Source of the DNA: a virus
Taxonomy: Duplodnaviria > Heunggongvirae > Uroviricota > Caudoviricetes
IMG/VR virus record: IMGVR_UViG_2563366843_000007
Reading direction: 5' to 3' (one strand)
DNA length: 32,971 nucleotides
Every line of letters starts with the position of its first letter. Within the stretch, counting starts at the first letter, position 1. The notes under the pieces were generated by a model. The model saw nothing but the letters and a program-made list of their open reading frames with translations. It searched no databases and was not told where the DNA came from. Positions 4,598-16,355 of this stretch are shown here, piece by piece. The translations under genes and the position numbers were made by a program.

Positions 4598-4931
4598 ATT
4601 GATAACAGAGGGCGTTGCAGCGGGGTTGTCACTTAAGCGTATGGTCAACCTGACAACCCGGTGTCCTCAACGGGGGAAGGAATAACCCCGCCATACTTAC
4701 CGCCGCGCCATTTCGCGGATTGCCACAACCGGAAGCGCACGGTCGACGAAAATTTAACGACAGGCTATCTATGAACCAGCTACCTCGCCGTGCGCTTTCG
4801 CGTTATGGTCTGACTTTTCAGGGAAATATCCTTTCAGTAAACTGTCAGTGCCGGATGTTCACCCGTGTCCGGCGCACGCACTCCACCTCACCCGTGGAGA
4901 ACTCCTTAATTACCAACCCTCAGGAGGGTGA

Positions 4932-5165
4932 ATGTTAAAATCAACTCTTATTGCTAAATGCCTTTATCAAAATCGCATGGTAAGCAGCATTTCAATAGGC
5001 GAGTCTGCAGTTAAAAGTATTTTCGAAGAGTACTTCCCCGGGCATGATTTTAATAAATGGAATACCAAATTACCGCCAGCAGTTTCAACGCGTATTCTGA
5101 AAGCAACTGAAAGAGCAAGTACAATTCGCGTTAACTATTTCATTAAAGATTTGTGGGATCTTTGA
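4932..5165 (+). CDS. Hypothetical protein (77 aa), AT-rich, no recognisable motif
   Basis: ATG preceded by AGGAGGG at 5-nt spacing; ~38% GC; convergent with and overlapping the 3' end of the 135-aa minus-strand gene by 23 bp. Could instead be antisense to that gene's 3' UTR. Confidence 0.4.
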   Translation: MLKSTLIAKCLYQNRMVSSISIGESAVKSIFEEYFPGHDFNKWNTKLPPAVSTRILKATERASTIRVNYFIKDLWDL

Positions 5166-5550
5166 CATCCACAGAGCCTAAAGTATGTGCATATGGATGT
5201 GCTATTGTGCGCCCTCGCAGATTTGCATCATTTTCTAAATTCACTGAACGAAACAGGGCATCAACAAGGCTCTGTACAATGCAAAGGCAATCGAAGACTG
5301 TCGCTGTTTCTGTTTTGATTGATGAAAGAACATGGCCATTCACGCAAACAGAAATTACCCGTTCATTAACATCGCTTTCCTGCTTTTGATTATCAGAACC
5401 ATATAGCCCAGAAAAAGCATTGCGCACATTACGAACCATATTATCGATGGTTTCTTTTTTGGTGTATGCCGGGTCAATTTTCACCAGACTATCACCGAGA
5501 GTCGTTGCAGCAATTGTCTGGATTTCTTTTGGTAAATCTTTAAATTCCAT
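5143..5550 (-). CDS. Hypothetical protein (135 aa), AT-rich moron gene
   Basis: ATG with GAGG 6 nt upstream, immediately downstream of the ydfC-like gene; ~40% GC against a markedly more GC-rich left flank; no recognisable family motif. Confidence 0.55.
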   Translation of the reverse strand: MEFKDLPKEIQTIAATTLGDSLVKIDPAYTKKETIDNMVRNVRNAFSGLYGSDNQKQESDVNERVISVCVNGHVLSSIKTETATVFDCLCIVQSLVDALFRSVNLENDANLRGRTIAHPYAHTLGSVDVKDPTNL

Positions 5551-5572
5551 TATTAGCCTCGTTGGTTAGCTA

Positions 5573-6378: not shown

Positions 6379-7053
6379 TCAGTCTAAGTATTGATGTATT
6401 TGTGAAACTTTACCTTTAATGGTGTAACCACCATTCAGTTCGATGGGTTTGTAAAGCGGATTCAGTGACAACAGATAGATGTTTGGTCCGTCAATCGCAA
6501 CTTTTTTTAGTGTTACGTTTGGCGTTCCTTCCAATTGGATTAAGATTATTTTTCCCACCAGTTCTCTAATGTTACTTGAGCATGGTGTGATCAGCACGGT
6601 AGATCCGTCGGGGATGGTTGGGAGGCCGTTAGAGTTTGTCATCGCATCTCCCTCAACATGCAATAAAAAAGAGTTTTCAGCGGTTTTTGTCATGACATCA
6701 ACCCAATTCTTAATACCAGGAATCTCGGTTACTGGACAACTCATATCCCAATAACCAGCCTGTTCCCACGTTAAAACGGGCAACCGGGCGATGTTGTCAC
6801 TAATGTAAAGGTACTGATTCAGACGCAGATCATCGGTTTTATCGTGACCGTCCTTTCCATAAAGAATCCATTCAGGAGATTTGGAAAGCAATTTTGACAG
6901 TAGATGTAAATTCTCACCGTCAGGTTTTGAAGAGCCATTTTCCCATTTTGTTACGGATACACGAGATATGCCGATTGCTTTCGCAACCTGCTGTTGGGTT
7001 AATCCTACGTCTTTTCGACGATTCCGAATACGTTCGCTGATAGTGTTTTTCAT
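6379..7053 (-). CDS. CI/C2-type prophage repressor (N-terminal HTH, C-terminal S24 LexA-like peptidase)
   Basis: N-terminus MKNTISERIRNRRKDVGLTQQQVAKAIGISRVSVTKWENG... is an XRE-type HTH resembling P22 C2; the C-terminal half is assigned as S24 self-cleaving peptidase fold from overall resemblance to C2/CI (catalytic Ser/Lys not individually identified). Start at 7053 keeps both OR operators intergenic; the longest ORF extends to 7152 (TTG). Confidence 0.85.
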   Translation of the reverse strand: MKNTISERIRNRRKDVGLTQQQVAKAIGISRVSVTKWENGSSKPDGENLHLLSKLLSKSPEWILYGKDGHDKTDDLRLNQYLYISDNIARLPVLTWEQAGYWDMSCPVTEIPGIKNWVDVMTKTAENSFLLHVEGDAMTNSNGLPTIPDGSTVLITPCSSNIRELVGKIILIQLEGTPNVTLKKVAIDGPNIYLLSLNPLYKPIELNGGYTIKGKVSQIHQYLD

Positions 7054-7054
7054 G

Positions 7055-7115
7055 TAACCAATGTTACTACCAAGTGATGTTGCTATGGTTGACATCGATA
7101 TGTAACTATTGTTAC
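7055..7115. promoter_or_regulatory. OR operator/promoter region with two GTAAC-N4-GTTAC operators (7055-7068, 7102-7115)
   Basis: GTAACCAATGTTAC and GTAACTATTGTTAC, 47 bp apart, between the divergent repressor and cro-like genes; a TTGACA hexamer at 7089-7094 lies between them. Confidence 0.55.
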
Positions 7116-7144
7116 CCTCCTGCTCGAAATAACAGGAGAGTTTT

Positions 7145-7360
7145 ATGTTCAAAGATGATGTTCTGCGCTATTTCAAAAAAAAGCGACTAGTAGCTGAGGC
7201 TCTTGGAATTTCACATGTGGCTGTTGTGCGGTGGAAAGCAGTTATTCCCAAACTTCGCGCAATGGAACTGGATGAAATTACTAACGGTGAATTGAAATAC
7301 AACCCAGAACTTTACAAGAAGCAGGATAGCACCTCGAACGAAGGAAAGAATGATTCATGA
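7145..7360 (+). CDS. Cro/YdaS-like HTH transcriptional regulator
   Basis: 71-aa ORF divergent from the repressor; HTH-like segment RLVAEALGISHVAVVRW; GGAGAG Shine-Dalgarno. Confidence 0.7.
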   Translation: MFKDDVLRYFKKKRLVAEALGISHVAVVRWKAVIPKLRAMELDEITNGELKYNPELYKKQDSTSNEGKNDS

Positions 7361-7782
7361 AAATCAAGCATGAACACATCCGCATGGCGATGAATGCCTG
7401 GGCGCATCCGGACGGCGAGAAAGTACCGGCTGCGAAAATTACCAAAGCGTATTTCGAACTGGGAATGACGTTCCCGGAACTGTATGACGATAGCCATCCG
7501 GAAGCCCTGGCTCGCAATACTCAGAAAATATTCCGCTGGGTGGAGAAAGACACCCCTGATGCTGTTGAAAAAATTCAGGCGTTGTTACCAGCGATCGAAA
7601 AAGCAATGCCACCTCTGCTGGTGGCCCGAATGCGCAGCCACAGTTCAGCCTATTTTCGGGAGCTGGTGGAGACGCGGGAACGACTGGTGAGGGACGCTGA
7701 TGATTTTGTCGCAGTGGCGATCGCTGGTTTCAATCAGATGAATCGTGGTGGTCCGGCGGGAAATGCCCTGGTGATGCACTAA
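7357..7782 (+). CDS. YdaT-like protein (CII functional analogue family)
   Basis: 141-aa ORF beginning MKIKHEHI..., as I recall for Rac YdaT; overlaps the cro-like stop (ATGA). Confidence 0.6.
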   Translation: MKIKHEHIRMAMNAWAHPDGEKVPAAKITKAYFELGMTFPELYDDSHPEALARNTQKIFRWVEKDTPDAVEKIQALLPAIEKAMPPLLVARMRSHSSAYFRELVETRERLVRDADDFVAVAIAGFNQMNRGGPAGNALVMH

Positions 7783-7805: not shown

Positions 7806-8753
7806 ATGAGCAGCAAGCTTCATGGTCTTGTCTGGGAAGGGTGCGCCTTCACCGGCATGATCTTATCCAGGGTGGCAGTAATGGCTCGCCTTGCAGATTA
7901 CAGCAATGACGAAGGTGTGTCATGGCCTGCAGTGGAGACCATTCGTCGTCAGATTGGGGCAAAGAGTGAATCAACGGTTAAAGCTGCGATAGCGGAACTG
8001 GAAAAGAACGGCTGGCTGACGAAGGAGGAACGTAAGGTCGGTGGGCGTAATGTAAGCAATATCTACCGTCTTAATGTGGAAAAACTAGAAGCAGCAGCAG
8101 CGGCGGCGCGTGAGGCATATAAACCGAAAAGAAAAATTAGCCAGGCAAAAAATGACCCGTCAAATATTGCCCCCTCAACGGTTGACCCCTCAAATTTTGA
8201 TGGATCAACCATTGATAAAAAACAACCTGATAGGGGGGCGATGGTTGGCCCCGATCCGTCAGTATTAAAACCTGATCCGTCAGATAAAAGATCTTTTCGT
8301 CCGGAAGCTTCGCAACCGGACTCGCAGACGACTGAACAGGATTTTTTAACCCGACACCCTGACGCGGTTGTGTTCAGTGCGAAAAAACGCCAGTGGGGCA
8401 GCCAGGAAGATTTAGCGTGTGCGCAGTGGATCTGGGGACGAATCGTGAGTCTTTACGAGCAGGCTGCCAGCGATGATGGCGAAATCATGCGACCGAAAGA
8501 ACCAAACTGGACTGCATGGGCCAATGATGTGCGCACAATGCGGATGCTGGATGGCAGAACTCACAGACAAATTTGCGAAATGTTTGGTCGGGCACAGCGG
8601 GATCCATTCTGGGTAAAAAACGTCATGAGCCCGTCAAAGCTTCGCGAAAAATGGGATGAGCTGGTTATTCGTCTGGGGCGTTCGCCTGTACAGCGTTGCG
8701 TGAATCACATTTCTGAACCGGATACCGAAATTCCGCCGGGCTTCAGGGGGTAA
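7806..8753 (+). CDS. Replication initiation protein (O-like; N-terminal HTH, C-terminal DnaT-like domain)
   Basis: 315-aa ORF; N-terminal winged-helix region; a repeat-encoded linker (DPSNIAPSTVDPSNF...PDPSVLKPDPSDK); C-terminal region typical of DnaT-like initiator domains. Confidence 0.75.
   Translation: MSSKLHGLVWEGCAFTGMILSRVAVMARLADYSNDEGVSWPAVETIRRQIGAKSESTVKAAIAELEKNGWLTKEERKVGGRNVSNIYRLNVEKLEAAAAAAREAYKPKRKISQAKNDPSNIAPSTVDPSNFDGSTIDKKQPDRGAMVGPDPSVLKPDPSDKRSFRPEASQPDSQTTEQDFLTRHPDAVVFSAKKRQWGSQEDLACAQWIWGRIVSLYEQAASDDGEIMRPKEPNWTAWANDVRTMRMLDGRTHRQICEMFGRAQRDPFWVKNVMSPSKLREKWDELVIRLGRSPVQRCVNHISEPDTEIPPGFRG
8153..8287. repeat. Iteron-like direct repeats (candidate ori) within the O-like gene
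   Basis: Core GAYCCNTCA repeated at 8154, 8184, 8253 and 8274 with 21-30 bp spacing, plus a degenerate copy near 8203 and an A/T-rich flank. Confidence 0.5.
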
Positions 8754-8793
8754 GTGTTTATTTCAGATCATGAGGTAATTTTCAGGAGGACTT

Positions 8794-9210
8794 GTGGCAA
8801 AAGTTTTTACTTCCGAACAGCGGGAAGAAGTGAAGGCGCGCATTGTGGAACTGGTACGCAGAGATGGTCGGAAAACGCGTAAACAACTGGAAAATGAAAT
8901 TGGGGTGACGAGACATCTGATAGAAGTTCTGACGAAAGAGCTGGTAGCCAGTGGTGTTGTATATGGTTCAGGGTATGGAATATTCCCTTCAGCGCAGGCG
9001 CGTAAGGACTGGATAAAAGCCATCGAAAAGATGTCGAAAGCGGCGGTGAAGAAAAAGAGCGATCCTGACCTGATTTATTCATTACCAGATGGAGAGATAC
9101 GCCGCTACGACAGACACCTGAACATAATCTGTCGCGAGTGCCGGAAGAGTGAGGTTATGCAGCGAGTGCTGGCGTTTTATCAGGGGAAATTTCAGGAGGT
9201 GATGCTGTGA
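8794..9210 (+). CDS. Hypothetical protein (138 aa), possible winged-helix protein of the replication module
   Basis: GTG start 4 nt after a GGAGG core; occupies the position of a P/DnaC-type helicase loader but has no ATPase motifs. Confidence 0.5.
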   Translation: MAKVFTSEQREEVKARIVELVRRDGRKTRKQLENEIGVTRHLIEVLTKELVASGVVYGSGYGIFPSAQARKDWIKAIEKMSKAAVKKKSDPDLIYSLPDGEIRRYDRHLNIICRECRKSEVMQRVLAFYQGKFQEVML

Positions 9211-9473
9211 GCGAATCAAAATGTCAGGTTAATGGCAATCAGATAGAACCATGTGCGGCACTGGCAAAAGCCCTTGAGCATGATGCTGAATACACGACGC
9301 GAAAAGGTCTGCTGATATACAAAATCTGGAATGAGAATTTAACTCGCGCCCCTGATTTGGTGATGTTGCGTTCCGGTGAATTTTCTAAATCACCTATTCG
9401 AGTCTCATTTTGCCCGTTCTGTGGTGAAAGTCTGAAAACATGGAAAAAGGAGACAACCAGTGAGCAAGATTGA
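9207..9473 (+). CDS. Hypothetical protein (88 aa) with putative Cys4 zinc-ribbon
   Basis: GTG start with AGGAGG at 7-nt spacing, overlapping the upstream stop; Cys pairs CQVNGNQIEPC and CPFCG. Confidence 0.45.
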   Translation: MSESKCQVNGNQIEPCAALAKALEHDAEYTTRKGLLIYKIWNENLTRAPDLVMLRSGEFSKSPIRVSFCPFCGESLKTWKKETTSEQD

Positions 9474-9984
9474 CTATCAGGCACTGCGTGGGGCGGCAGA
9501 AGCAATAAAAATAGCAGCCACACCACAAAAATTTCTGGCATTTCGTATGAAAGCCACACCTCAGGTTGTGCTGGAACTGCTGGATGAACTGGAAATTAAA
9601 AGCAAACGAATTAACGAGTTAATCAAGGGGGGGGAAAACGCCAAATACGTGACAGAAATTTTCCGACTTGAGAAAGAACGCATGACGCTGGCGGCGGAGA
9701 ATGCGCGGCTGAATAAATTTATCGTACAGAGTTGCTATGTGTTTAATGGCGAGCAGGATGAAATATCTGATGCGTATATCTGCGCAACAGACGGAGGTAT
9801 GCCGCAAACCCAGGCTACAGATGCTTTCCTGGCTGATGTACGGGCGGTGGCGTTTAACGAGCTTCGCGCGGCGTTTGTCAGGCACGCAAAAGTTGCAGGA
9901 CTGGATGATGCCGATACCGTAACGCTTAAGGAAGTGACAGAAGCATTATTGCATTGTGCGGAACAGATTCGCGCGCCTGAATAA
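9460..9984 (+). CDS. Ead/Ea22-like protein
   Basis: 174-aa ORF, GTG start with AGGAG Shine-Dalgarno; charged helix-rich sequence typical of lambdoid early-region Ea22-like proteins. Confidence 0.45.
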   Translation: MSKIDYQALRGAAEAIKIAATPQKFLAFRMKATPQVVLELLDELEIKSKRINELIKGGENAKYVTEIFRLEKERMTLAAENARLNKFIVQSCYVFNGEQDEISDAYICATDGGMPQTQATDAFLADVRAVAFNELRAAFVRHAKVAGLDDADTVTLKEVTEALLHCAEQIRAPE

Positions 9985-10078
9985 TTAAATTTAGTGTTGT
10001 AAATAAAATTTAATCCTTAACCGGAGGGATTCCTTCACCCTCAAATCATCAGGAGGCCGCCCGAAAGGGCGGTAATGA

Positions 10079-10297
10079 ATGGTCACATTATTTAGAAAAA
10101 AATATCCGCGAAAGAGTAGAACAACAGAATTTCTGTTTCTCATTCTGTTTATCGTGTTGATGATACCGATATCCCCGCTAATTTTTGTCTGGACAATCGG
10201 GAAAATAATTGAGCCAGTTATTGAATTGTATAACGACGTGGTGTGGGCGTCGTTCAACACACTGCACAATAAAATTAATCCGTATAAGGAAAGCTGA
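10079..10297 (+). CDS. Small membrane protein (72 aa)
   Basis: Hydrophobic segment FLFLILFIVLMIPISPLIFVWTIG; AT-rich; stop lies 1 nt before the HNH gene start. Confidence 0.4.
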   Translation: MVTLFRKKYPRKSRTTEFLFLILFIVLMIPISPLIFVWTIGKIIEPVIELYNDVVWASFNTLHNKINPYKES

Positions 10298-10298
10298 T

Positions 10299-10664
10299 AT
10301 GGCACTGACGAAAAAACAACGTGCAGAGCTGCGCATGAAGTTCGGCGGTCGCTGTGCTTATTGCGGCTGCGAACTTGGCGAAAAGTGGCATGCAGACCAT
10401 GTAAAACCGGTCATTCGTTTTGCTGGAAATATGCTTCACCAGGAACGTGACGATATATCCAACATGGTTCCGGCATGCCACCCATGCAATCTGCACAAGC
10501 ATTGCAGCAGCCTGGAAGATTATCGGCGAATTATCAGTGATGGTCGTCGTGAATTCCTTGCGTCCGGGAAAGGCAAAGTGCTGGTTCGTATGGGATTGGT
10601 TGAAATGAAACCTGACCCGGTTGTGTTCTGGTTTGAAAAATATCAAGAAGGGGCTACAGCATGA
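10299..10664 (+). CDS. HNH endonuclease
   Basis: 121-aa product from the internal ATG with AAGGA Shine-Dalgarno; HNH/zinc motif CAYCGC...HADH...N...CHPCNLHKH. Confidence 0.75.
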   Translation: MALTKKQRAELRMKFGGRCAYCGCELGEKWHADHVKPVIRFAGNMLHQERDDISNMVPACHPCNLHKHCSSLEDYRRIISDGRREFLASGKGKVLVRMGLVEMKPDPVVFWFEKYQEGATA

Positions 10665-11340: not shown

Positions 11341-11551
11341 AAACGGTTTGCGGGAAAAGGAGAGTTAAGTAGAATTGCAGCGGGTGCTTGAGGCTATCTG
11401 TCTCAGGCATGAACACCAAAAGGCAGATAGAGAAAAGCCCCAGTTAACATTACGCGTCCGGCAAGACGCTTAACATTAATCTGAGGCTCAATCTATGAAC
11501 GGCAAATCTAGGTTAGCCTCTTACGTGCCGAAAGGCAAGGAGAAGCAGGCT
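11341..11551. promoter_or_regulatory. hok mRNA leader region (possible mok-like upstream start and antisense Sok-like RNA)
   Basis: Structured leader upstream of hok; an in-frame upstream ATG at 11495 with GAGG; inverted repeat CTATCTG...CAGATAG at 11395-11439. Confidence 0.35.
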
Positions 11552-11707
11552 ATGAAGCAGCAAAAGGCGATGTTAATCGCCCTGATCGTCATCTGTTTAA
11601 CCGTCATAGTGACGGCACTGGTAACGAGGAAAGACCTCTGCGAGGTACGAATCCGAACCGGCCAGACGGAGGTCGCTGTCTTCACAGCTTACGAACCTGA
11701 GGAGTAA
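11552..11707 (+). CDS. hokD: Hok/Gef-family type I toxin (HokD/RelF-like)
   Basis: 51-aa product MKQQKAMLIALIVICLTVIVTALVTRKDLCEVRIRTGQTEVAVFTAYEPEE, typical Hok transmembrane and periplasmic domains, essentially as I recall RelF/HokD; AAGGAG Shine-Dalgarno. Confidence 0.8.
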   Translation: MKQQKAMLIALIVICLTVIVTALVTRKDLCEVRIRTGQTEVAVFTAYEPEE

Positions 11708-12148: not shown

Positions 12149-13195
12149 GTGCGGGTATTACTTCGACCTGTTCCGGTACCGGAACTCGGGCTGGTGGTCC
12201 TTAAGCCGGGGCGTGAATCCATGCAGGTATTTCATAACCCTCGAGTGCTGGTGGAGCCTGAACCGAAAAGCATGCGCGGGCTGCCGTCCGGGGTCGTTCC
12301 TGCCGTTCGCCAGCCGCTGGTGGAAGACAAAACATTGCTGCCGTTTTTCAGTAACGCACGGGTGATTCGTGCTGCTGGTGGTGCTGGTGCATTGTCTGAC
12401 TGGCTGTTGCGCCATATTAAATCCTGCCAGTGGCCACACGGCGATTATCATCACAGCGAAACTGTCATTCACCGTTATGGTACCGGCGCGATGGTGTTGT
12501 GCTGGCACTGCGACAACCAGCTGCGTGACCAGACCTCAGAATCACTTGAGCAACTTGCTCAACAAAACCTGACAGCATGGATGATTGACGTCATCCGTCA
12601 CGCAATAAGCGGTGCGCAGGAGCGTGAATTATCGCTGGCTGAATTATCCTGGTGGGCTGTCTGCAATCAGGTGGCGGACGCACTACCGGAGGTAGTATTA
12701 CGTCGTTCTCTGGGGTTACGTGCGGAAAAAATTCGCTCGGTGTACCGCGAAAGCGACATCATACCGGGAGAGCAGACAGCCACCAGCATACTGAAGCAGC
12801 GCACAAAAAATCTTGCGCCGCTGCCTCACGCCCACCAGCAAAACCCGCCACAGGAAAAGACGGTGGTCAGTATTGCCGTTGATCCGGAGTCTCCTGAATC
12901 TTTCATGAAGCGGCCTAAACGTCGCCGTTGGGTGAATGAGAAATACACGCGTTGGGTAAAGACACAGCCGTGTGCGTGTTGTGGTAAGCCAGCCGACGAT
13001 CCCCATCACCTGATTGGTCACGGTCAGGGAGGGATGGGGACAAAAGCCCACGATATTTTCACGCTACCGCTGTGCCGGGAGCATCACAATGAACTTCATG
13101 CTGATCCGCTGACATTTGAAGAAAAGCATGGTTCCCAGATTGATTTAATTTTTCGTTTTCTTGATCACGCCTTTGCAACCGGCGTGCTCGGGTAA
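12149..13195 (+). CDS. DUF968-family protein (YdfU-like) with C-terminal HNH-like Cys/His motif
   Basis: 348-aa ORF, GTG start 4 nt after GGAGG; C-terminal CACCGK...DPHHLIGHGQGGMGTKAHD...CREHHNELH motif as in lambdoid DUF968 proteins. Confidence 0.65.
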   Translation: MRVLLRPVPVPELGLVVLKPGRESMQVFHNPRVLVEPEPKSMRGLPSGVVPAVRQPLVEDKTLLPFFSNARVIRAAGGAGALSDWLLRHIKSCQWPHGDYHHSETVIHRYGTGAMVLCWHCDNQLRDQTSESLEQLAQQNLTAWMIDVIRHAISGAQERELSLAELSWWAVCNQVADALPEVVLRRSLGLRAEKIRSVYRESDIIPGEQTATSILKQRTKNLAPLPHAHQQNPPQEKTVVSIAVDPESPESFMKRPKRRRWVNEKYTRWVKTQPCACCGKPADDPHHLIGHGQGGMGTKAHDIFTLPLCREHHNELHADPLTFEEKHGSQIDLIFRFLDHAFATGVLG

Positions 13196-16004: not shown

Positions 16005-16355
16005 ATGCCATCACTAATTCCACGTGCCTGCCGTAAGCGTGGATGTGCAGGTACAACCACAGACAGTTCTGGTTACTGCGATAAACATCGTGGTGAAGGA
16101 TGGGTACAGCATCAACGCGGACTGAGTCGCCACCAGCGTGGCTATGGCTCGAAATGGGATGCCATACGTGCGCGCATACTGAAGCGTGATAATCATCTGT
16201 GTCAGAACTGCCTGCGCAATGGGAGAGCCGTTGAAGCCAGAACTGTGGACCACATCATTCCGAAAGCTCATGGTGGCACGGATGCAGACAGTAACCTGCA
16301 GAGTCTGTGCTGGCCCTGTCATAAAGCAAAAACAGCGCGCGAACGCATCAATTGA
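16005..16355 (+). CDS. HNH endonuclease (terminase-associated)
   Basis: 116-aa ORF with HNH motif (CQNC...DHIIPKAHGG...N...CWPCH) immediately upstream of the terminase genes. Confidence 0.8.
   Translation: MPSLIPRACRKRGCAGTTTDSSGYCDKHRGEGWVQHQRGLSRHQRGYGSKWDAIRARILKRDNHLCQNCLRNGRAVEARTVDHIIPKAHGGTDADSNLQSLCWPCHKAKTARERIN

Follow-up and report, generated by a model that had tools for sequence, protein, structure and literature searches.

A lone O-type replication initiator with a DnaT-type tail, followed by Ren-family and Cys4 genes, in a lambdoid Escherichia coli prophage

We analysed a stretch of 32,971 nucleotides (nt) from a virus of the Caudoviricetes (IMG/VR record IMGVR_UViG_2563366843_000007), referred to below as the window. 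Gene calls and family scans identified it as a lambdoid E. coli prophage that runs from the integrase into the tail genes. Two small genes, here called ORF138 and ORF88, lie directly downstream of its replication initiator gene, in the usual place of a helicase loader. The original prediction, made from the letters alone, had considered two possibilities, namely that the two small proteins act as a new accessory pair instead of a loader, or that the helicase is recruited through a DnaT-like C-terminus of the initiator. We found that the window carries an O-only lambdoid replication module, a class already on record. Our preferred reading, to which we assign a probability of about 0.7, is that such a module loads the helicase by means of host DnaC, reached through the initiator, and that ORF138 and ORF88 are ordinary accessory genes and not substitutes for a loader.

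According to this reading, the single replication gene (7806-8753) would encode an origin-binding initiator, which would bring the host DnaB·DnaC complex to the phage origin, the contact probably being made by the DnaT-type tail. A DnaC paralogue encoded by the phage would be optional because the host supplies one. ORF138 and ORF88 would be the first genes of a dispensable accessory region of the ren/nin type, co-transcribed rightward and translationally coupled. The loader-less layout would then be ordinary biology, consisting of a Ren-family gene and a sporadic accessory gene, in an arrangement seen in about one tenth of lambdoid phages.

The initiator and the O-only class

The open reading frame (ORF) at 7806-8753 encodes a lambda-O-type protein, with a winged helix-turn-helix (wHTH) at the N-terminus and an O-type C-domain. 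The N-terminal part was recognised as the HTH_36 winged-helix domain (Pfam, 5e-8), the protein matched PHROG 391, 'replication initiation O-like', at 8.5e-113, and the C-terminal domain (approximately residues 161-288) is 38% identical to lambda O over 128 amino acids (aa; E = 1e-24). The DNA coding for the linker bears iteron-like direct repeats between 8153 and 8285. At 8153-8200 Tandem Repeats Finder reported 3.2 copies of the 15-nt unit TGACCCCTCAAATAT (score 54), and a 13-nt repeat, CCyGATCCGTCAG, is present twice, at 8250 and 8271. The repeats are followed by an A/T-rich stretch, the whole region covering 8153-8350. By analogy with ori-lambda, which lies in gene O, these repeats and the A/T-rich stretch inside the initiator gene are a candidate for the phage origin.

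The initiator ends in 20 residues (aa 296-315, QRCVNHISEPDTEIPPGFRG) of which 14 are identical to the corresponding residues at the end of E. coli DnaT, and the tail also matches the PDB chains 2ru8, 6aep and 9zbt. Together with the stop codon it occupies 8691-8753 on the plus strand and reads …SEPDTEIPPGFRG. No DnaT similarity could be aligned outside the tail, including the three-helix domain that binds single-stranded DNA (ssDNA; residues 84-153 of DnaT) and the N-terminal oligomerisation domain, and the NCBIfam DnaT model gave 16.6 bits against a cut-off of 201. Because no alignment extends beyond the tail and the family model stays below its cut-off, the initiator is, as judged from its sequence, a lambda-O-type protein with a DnaT tail and not a member of the DnaT family. 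Recruitment of the helicase through this C-terminus, one of the two options in the original prediction, is favoured by the comparison of the tails and by their distribution described below, and it falls short of proof.

Among the large ORFs that extend from integrase to terminase, Pfam, PHROG and NCBIfam revealed no P-, DnaC/IstB-, DnaD- or DnaB-type proteins. Searches of the whole 33-kb window by tblastn with lambda P, Rac YdaV, E. coli DnaC and DnaB gave a best E value of 0.006, which belonged to a chance match of 19 residues, and neither Pfam, PHROG nor tblastn revealed a P-type loader downstream of the initiator in the window. The claim that the module has no recognisable helicase loader therefore holds for the window, and no canonical loader turned up elsewhere in these 33 kb, which stop within the tail genes, short of the far end of the prophage. 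Within the window there is one O-homologue and no gene for a helicase or a loader, which is what defines an O-only module. Such modules were found in 34 of 314 lambdoid phages, and the replication of these phages was called 'not yet understood' (Genome Res 2025, PMC12315714).

Isolated phages display the same arrangement. In HannyBb and mEp460_ev081 an O-like gene is followed by a Ren-like gene, and the 13 kb of early region examined contain no loader. The classification of Weigel and Seitz (2006) is said to contain an 'initiator-solo' type, in which the initiator stands alone and the host provides the loading functions; the window may belong to this type, which we mention as a lead only. Another case is the phage LLS, which forms plaques and plates on E. 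coli K-12 (PMC12315714). Its whole genome of 42.9 kb contains no homologue of ORF138, Ren, ORF88, P, DnaC or DnaB, which shows that O-only modules work without genes of the ORF138 and ORF88 type. The O protein of LLS (PQ299149, 34213-35067; locus L369) is 36% identical to the initiator of the window over its full length and ends in …VDTKIPEGFRG, a variant of the DnaT-type tail. A term search of the LLS paper (PMC12315714) found no mention of DnaT or DnaC.

Distribution of the tail and of the DnaC-like gene

A scan of IMG/VR with a back-translated pattern of the initiator's last residues (IPPGFRG plus a stop codon) recovered 120 matches (L005-L124). All 120 are C-termini of initiator-like ORFs, which measure approximately 260-408 aa where they are full-length. 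A DnaC-like gene accompanies the tail at 61 loci and is lacking at 59, while a P or DnaB gene accompanies it at none. Seen from the side of the loaders, a tail-bearing initiator lies upstream of the YdaV-like loader in 76 of 76 cases, and the O protein upstream of the lambda-P loader ends in DWIYGV[DE]L and has no tail, also in 76 of 76. This control without the tail was taken from a separate, nearly clonal lambda-P scan (P at least 98% identical), because the scan for relatives of the lambda-O C-domain did not reach beyond close relatives of the window (identity of at least 92%).

The scan of bacterial genomes covered 596 Gb, with one genome per species (L370-L489). More than half of the pattern matches were due to chance and were removed by requiring the stop codon and the extended context PDxxIPPGFRG. 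The true tails are of two kinds, belonging either to chromosomal DnaT or to YdaU-like initiators of prophages, after which comes a YdaV-like gene. At the chromosomal loci dnaC is the next gene in nearly all cases, usually within -4 to +2 nt. All true tails with a listed organism come from Enterobacterales, mostly from Enterobacteriaceae. The tail …PDxxIPPGFRG is thus found at the end of chromosomal DnaT and of initiators built on three or more unrelated scaffolds. One of these combines YdaU/DUF1376 and a DnaT C-terminal domain, another HTH_36 and a lambda-O C-domain, and a third type measures approximately 358 aa. Rac YdaU belongs to the first of these and is followed by the DnaC-like YdaV, which is 50% identical to DnaC; the YdaV-like genes in relatives of the window are approximately 80-95% identical to YdaV. 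In the samples taken, the tail goes with DnaC-type loaders or with no loader, and never with lambda P.

Six of the IMG/VR loci (L052, L061, L068, L076, L099 and L113) represent another loader-less variant. Their initiators of 270-275 aa end in the tail and, in addition, have a C-terminal region that shares 60-62% identity with the DnaT C-terminal domain. The loci contain neither a DnaC-like nor a DUF977 gene, with uncharacterised ORFs of 114-155 aa situated 115-120 nt downstream.

Downstream of the tail-bearing initiator, the 120 IMG/VR loci show two layouts, with either a YdaV-like gene or the DUF977 gene (the family of ORF138, see below) coming directly next. In the former the DnaC paralogue starts 6 nt after the initiator stop and is usually followed by a YdaW-like gene and then by DUF977, and in the latter 40 nt separate the stop from the start of DUF977. 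We also compared 80 loci in which the C-domain of the initiator shares at least 92% identity with that of the window; DUF977 follows the initiator directly at 49, YdaV comes first at 23 and a YdaW-like gene alone intervenes at three. The locus L058 is 96.4% identical to the window at the DNA level up to the initiator stop at 8753, then carries an insert of 1.5 kb with ydaV and ydaW, and its homology to the window returns at 8785, just ahead of the ribosome site of ORF138. Two other loci (L018 and L085) have an insert of 746 nt with ydaV only, placed between 8753 and 8771. The DnaC-like gene therefore behaves as an optional cassette located after nearly identical initiator genes (approximately 96% DNA identity).

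The presence of this cassette exactly at the junction in relatives with approximately 96% identical initiator DNA could also mean that the prophage has lost its DnaC-like gene and is a cryptic deletion remnant incapable of autonomous replication, as many E. coli prophages are defective. We consider this quite unlikely. The loader-less layout is the commoner one among the close relatives (49/80), and it occurs in isolated phages and in the plaque-forming LLS. Moreover, the junction is a clean spacer of 40 nt in which the ribosome site of ORF138 is kept, and the integrase, Q, lysis, terminase, head and tail genes are all retained in the window.

The distribution of the tail led us to a broader proposal, which we put forward tentatively and at somewhat less than even odds. 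A tail of approximately 13-20 residues (…[SP]xPDxxIPPGFRG), common to host DnaT and to the unrelated phage scaffolds listed above, might be a portable linear motif that couples a protein bound at an origin or a fork to complexes of a DnaC-family loader with DnaB. If this were true, lambdoid phages bearing the motif could dispense with a DnaC-like gene of their own and rely on host DnaC, and the motif would also show which part of DnaT passes DnaB/DnaC on to the restart primosome; how this happens was still unknown according to the 2026 preprimosome paper (PMC13377028). The distribution of the tail offers a concrete and testable explanation for the replication of O-only phages, and it may bear on how DnaT recruits DnaB/DnaC in restart.

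As an alternative, the tail might contact PriA or PriB of the restart primosome, or drive self-assembly on ssDNA, instead of contacting DnaC or DnaB, and the ordinary restart pathway would then deliver the DnaB·DnaC complex. In the preprimosome, a conserved hydrophobic surface of the DnaT C-terminal domain binds PriA, and the domain also assembles into filaments on ssDNA (PMC13377028), and DnaT without residues 154-179 has lower ssDNA affinity and cooperativity (PMC4132743). However, the initiator of the window has only the last 20 residues of DnaT and not the filament-forming three-helix bundle, the genomic partner of the tail is consistently a DnaC-family gene or none, and neither the text nor the supplement of PMC13377028 places the tail in the PriA interface. 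We regard this alternative as doubtful.

The two small genes downstream of the initiator

The gene structure given by the original prediction was confirmed, that is two coupled genes with strong Shine-Dalgarno sites, encoding a basic protein of 138 aa and an overlapping Cys4 protein of 88 aa. ORF138 has an isoelectric point of 9.69 and its AGGAGG lies 4 nt ahead of the start. The AGGAGG of ORF88 (9194-9199) lies 7 nt ahead of its start, which overlaps the stop of ORF138 by 4 nt (GTGA), so that ORF88 is translationally coupled to ORF138. The NCBI Prokaryotic Genome Annotation Pipeline picked the same starts for both genes in a relative with 99.6% identity over the matched stretch. The two starts are preceded by one and the same 10-nt context, TTTCAGGAGG (8781-8789 and 9190-9199). 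The sequence GTAATTTCAGGAGGACTT is kept ahead of DUF977 in relatives, with or without a DnaC-like gene upstream.

ORF138 had been described as unassigned, which no longer applies. It matches PF06163 (DUF977) with 111.9 bits against a cut-off of 22.1 (3e-32), over residues 1-134 of a profile of 134 positions, and PHROG 142, 'Ren-like exclusion protein', at 4.4e-41, while lambda Ren hits the same PHROG at 1.6e-41. In BLASTP the similarity between ORF138 and lambda Ren is confined to the C-terminal half (E = 4e-7), and in an alignment of 38 sequences (A4) the two proteins align end to end. They have in common a C-terminal motif, N-[IL]-I-x-x-E-C-[RK]-x-S-x-x-M-x-R-[VI]-L, in which N110, I112 and E115 are invariant in the alignment and C116, R117, S119, M122, R124 and L126 are conserved in at least 90% of sequences. 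The DUF977 proteins are labelled 'LygF' in some annotations.

Structure prediction, proposed as a check by the original prediction, gave a model of ORF138 that is confident in its N-terminal half and an unusable one of ORF88, as told below. The AlphaFold2 model of ORF138 (mean predicted local distance difference test, pLDDT, 78.9; above 90 for residues 11-70, by blocks of 10 residues) has a wHTH at residues 7-64, then a long helix, with a poorly modelled C-terminal third. Foldseek against PDB and BFVD matched the wHTH to generic domains of GntR-, MarR- and ArsR-type regulators (E approximately 0.01-0.1); no loader-like fold was among these matches, and the C-terminal part had no match. The sequence search of PDB gave weak wHTH matches to CodY and AraR. 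The model suggests that ORF138 probably binds DNA.

The gene order in lambda is O-P-ren, and ORF138 likewise comes directly after the replication genes in the rightward early operon. Because of this order and of the homology to Ren, ORF138 is, on sequence grounds, a member of the Ren/DUF977 family, a homologue and positional equivalent of ren and not of P. The orders O-DUF977 or O-YdaV-(YdaW)-DUF977 were found at approximately 190 of the 280 related loci sampled. By analogy with lambda Ren, whose phenotype is escape from Rex exclusion, ORF138 probably modulates exclusion or replication without being required for replication, and a modulatory, non-essential link of the Ren family to replication may exist.

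We also considered K-12 YdaW as a homologue of ORF138, but no homology was found at the BLAST level, and modules of the Rac type carry DUF977 as a separate gene further downstream. The YdaW-like genes of 250-270 aa located between the DnaC-like gene and DUF977 (L007, L020, L058 and others) display weak similarity to wHTH and to PHROG 142, and many modules therefore hold two tandem Ren-related genes after the loader. The 3′ end of K-12 ydaW is fused to an Rz-like sequence.

ORF88 matches PHROG 4030 at 2.5e-40, and its close relatives form 69 clusters, all labelled hypothetical, of which the named ones are all from Enterobacteriaceae. Its cysteines C6, C16, C69 and C72 follow the pattern C-x9-C … C-P-F-C-G, and when 40 relatives with identities of 24-42% were aligned (A5), no columns other than C6, C16, C69, P70 and C72 were invariant. 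A profile search of 1.84 billion representatives recovered 209 members at E ≤ 1e-3, mostly stand-alone proteins of 75-110 residues. Ten distant relatives had no Pfam family, the match of ORF88 itself to DUF6980 was weak and below threshold (E = 0.009), and the lipocalin match of one relative of 348 aa is partial and probably spurious. By its conserved cysteines, ORF88 is a genuine Cys4 protein, which presumably binds zinc. Its 3′ end is overlapped by an Ead/Ea22-like gene.

Neither small protein resembles a loader in its sequence. Pfam, PHROG and NCBIfam gave no match of ORF138 or ORF88 to the loader families (lambda P PF06992, DnaC/IstB AAA+, DnaD/DnaB_2, DciA). Both proteins lack a Walker A motif or P-loop under strict and relaxed patterns, in agreement with the earlier statement that they have no ATPase motifs. 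A substitute should be present where the loader is absent and unneeded where the loader is present, and neither gene is distributed in this way. DUF977 was found at 42 of 61 loci with a loader and at 49 of 59 without (Fisher p = 0.09), and ORF88 at 3 of 61 and 8 of 59, respectively (Fisher p = 0.12), some of the loci being incomplete. Ten of the 59 loader-less tail loci have no DUF977, and among the 80 close relatives ORF88 occurs at six loci, in both layouts. The differences are not significant, and neither small gene tracks the absence of the loader.

Several points weigh against our preferred reading. The preprimosome paper favours the N-terminal domain of DnaT as the recruiter of DnaB/DnaC, by a mechanism that 'remains unknown', and assigns no role to the tail in its main text or supplement (PMC13377028). 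In DopC proteins a DnaT-type C-terminal domain is paired with a P-like loader (PMC5509034), and DnaT-derived C-termini are therefore not strictly tied to DnaC. The contact of the tail with DnaC or DnaB is proposed from comparison. The samples used for co-occurrence consist mostly of closely related E. coli prophages, which are not phylogenetically independent, and the pattern of tail and DnaC could stem from inherited linkage, for example if the dnaT-dnaC operon were of phage origin; the dnaT-dnaC and ydaU-ydaV pairs may share ancestry. The prophage is known here from its genes, and its replication is presumed. As to the small genes, the Court laboratory described Ren as 'likely involved in DNA replication' and reported two-hybrid contacts of the Rex proteins with O and Ren (bioRxiv 2021.04.19.439022), and the AlphaFold2 model of ORF88, built from 24 close homologues, reached a pLDDT of 46.6 and was unusable for a fold search.

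These last points also speak for the idea that ORF138 and ORF88 are a new accessory pair which takes over the recruitment or loading of DnaB from P or DnaC. Ren-family genes always adjoin replication genes, and ORF138 and ORF88 form a coupled pair with strong ribosome sites right behind the initiator gene. We nevertheless consider such a pair highly improbable. Both genes occur downstream of DnaC-like loaders in nearly identical modules, ORF88 is present in only 8 of the 59 loader-less ones, loader-less loci without DUF977 exist, and LLS plates without either gene. The part of ORF138 that could be modelled well is a generic wHTH and matched no loader, and lambda ren is listed as non-essential in literature cited in PMC10695390. 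The claim of a pair in the loader's place is thus not upheld, and a likely trap of annotation is corrected at the same time, as a gene standing where a loader usually stands is not by that token a loader.

Prophage setting and comparison with known systems

The features of the window are listed in Table 1. Downstream of the Ead/Ea22-like gene, the order is HNH, hok-like, DUF968 and RusA genes, then Q, the lysis genes and the terminase onward. Three HNH-type nuclease genes are present in this one prophage, and the hokD-like gene represents a type I toxin-antitoxin locus in the nin-like region.

Table 1. Coordinates of the features in the window, in gene order
Feature	Position	Strand	Remarks
Integrase	1-1131	minus	
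Exonuclease, 826 aa			after the integrase in gene order
CI-type repressor	6379-7152	minus	
Cro	7145-7360		
YdaT/CII-like activator	7357-7782		
Replication initiator, 315 aa	7806-8753	plus	Pfam HTH_36, PHROG 391, lambda O C-domain, DnaT-type tail
Spacer between initiator and ORF138, 40 nt	8754-8793	plus	holds the ORF138 Shine-Dalgarno AGGAGG, 8784-8789
ORF138, DUF977/Ren-like, 138 aa	8794-9210	plus	PF06163, PHROG 142; GTG start at 8794, TGA ending at 9210
ORF88, Cys4 protein, 88 aa	9207-9473	plus	PHROG 4030; GTG start at 9207, stop ending at 9473
Ead/Ea22-like accessory gene	9460-9984	plus	Pfam Ead_Ea22, 1e-9
Small HNH nuclease gene	10209-10664		Pfam/PHROG scans
Hok-type toxin ORF	11495-11707		ends in …MLIALIVICLTVIVTALVTRKDLCEVRIRTGQTEVAVFTAYEPEE; equivalent in a relative annotated hokD
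DUF968/HNH nuclease gene	12149-13195		Pfam/PHROG scans
HNH nuclease gene adjoining the small terminase gene	16005-16355		Pfam/PHROG scans

A prophage of E. coli 52F4 situated beside ompW (L001) has 99.3-99.96% DNA identity to the window over the shared blocks. The two differ by two block replacements, at 4919-5552 and 9444-10084, which are typical mosaic exchange. The former block holds an ORF of 135 aa (5143-5550, minus strand, PHROG 1363) and the latter spans the end of ORF88 and the Ead/Ea22-like gene.

In phage P7, the homologue of ORF88 (upf87.4) is part of an accessory block outside any annotated replication module, with the Ead/Ea22-like gene upf88.3 two genes further on. An ORF88-type gene is thus found near an Ead/Ea22-like gene both in P7 and in the window.

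Compared with lambda, the initiator of the window has the counterparts of the origin-binding wHTH and of the C-domain of O, the latter being 38-46% identical, and its gene contains the iteron-like repeats that are candidates for the counterpart of the repeats inside gene O. However, lambda O ends in …TDWIYGVDL and is always followed by P (76/76), whereas the initiator of the window ends in the DnaT tail and has no P after it. Lambda Ren resembles ORF138 in its N-terminal wHTH, the C-terminal motif, the assignment to PHROG 142 and the place after the replication genes. It differs in its length (96 aa against 138 aa), and the overall identity is approximately 25%; ORF138 and the DUF977 proteins contain an insert of approximately 30 residues after the wHTH (FPSxQARKDWIKA…KKK…DPDLIYS) that is not in Ren.

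LLS differs from the window by having a methyltransferase gene directly after O and neither a Ren-like nor an ORF88-like gene, but it resembles the window in its lone O-homologue, in the lack of a helicase or loader gene and in the related tail IPEGFRG. The other two systems to be compared are Rac YdaU-YdaV(-YdaW) and E. coli dnaT-dnaC. Both include a DnaC-family gene, in contrast to the window, and both YdaU and DnaT have the three-helix C-terminal domain of DnaT where the initiator of the window has a lambda-O-type C-domain with the 20-residue tail. What they have in common with the window is the end of the upstream protein, the tail …PDxxIPPGFRG.

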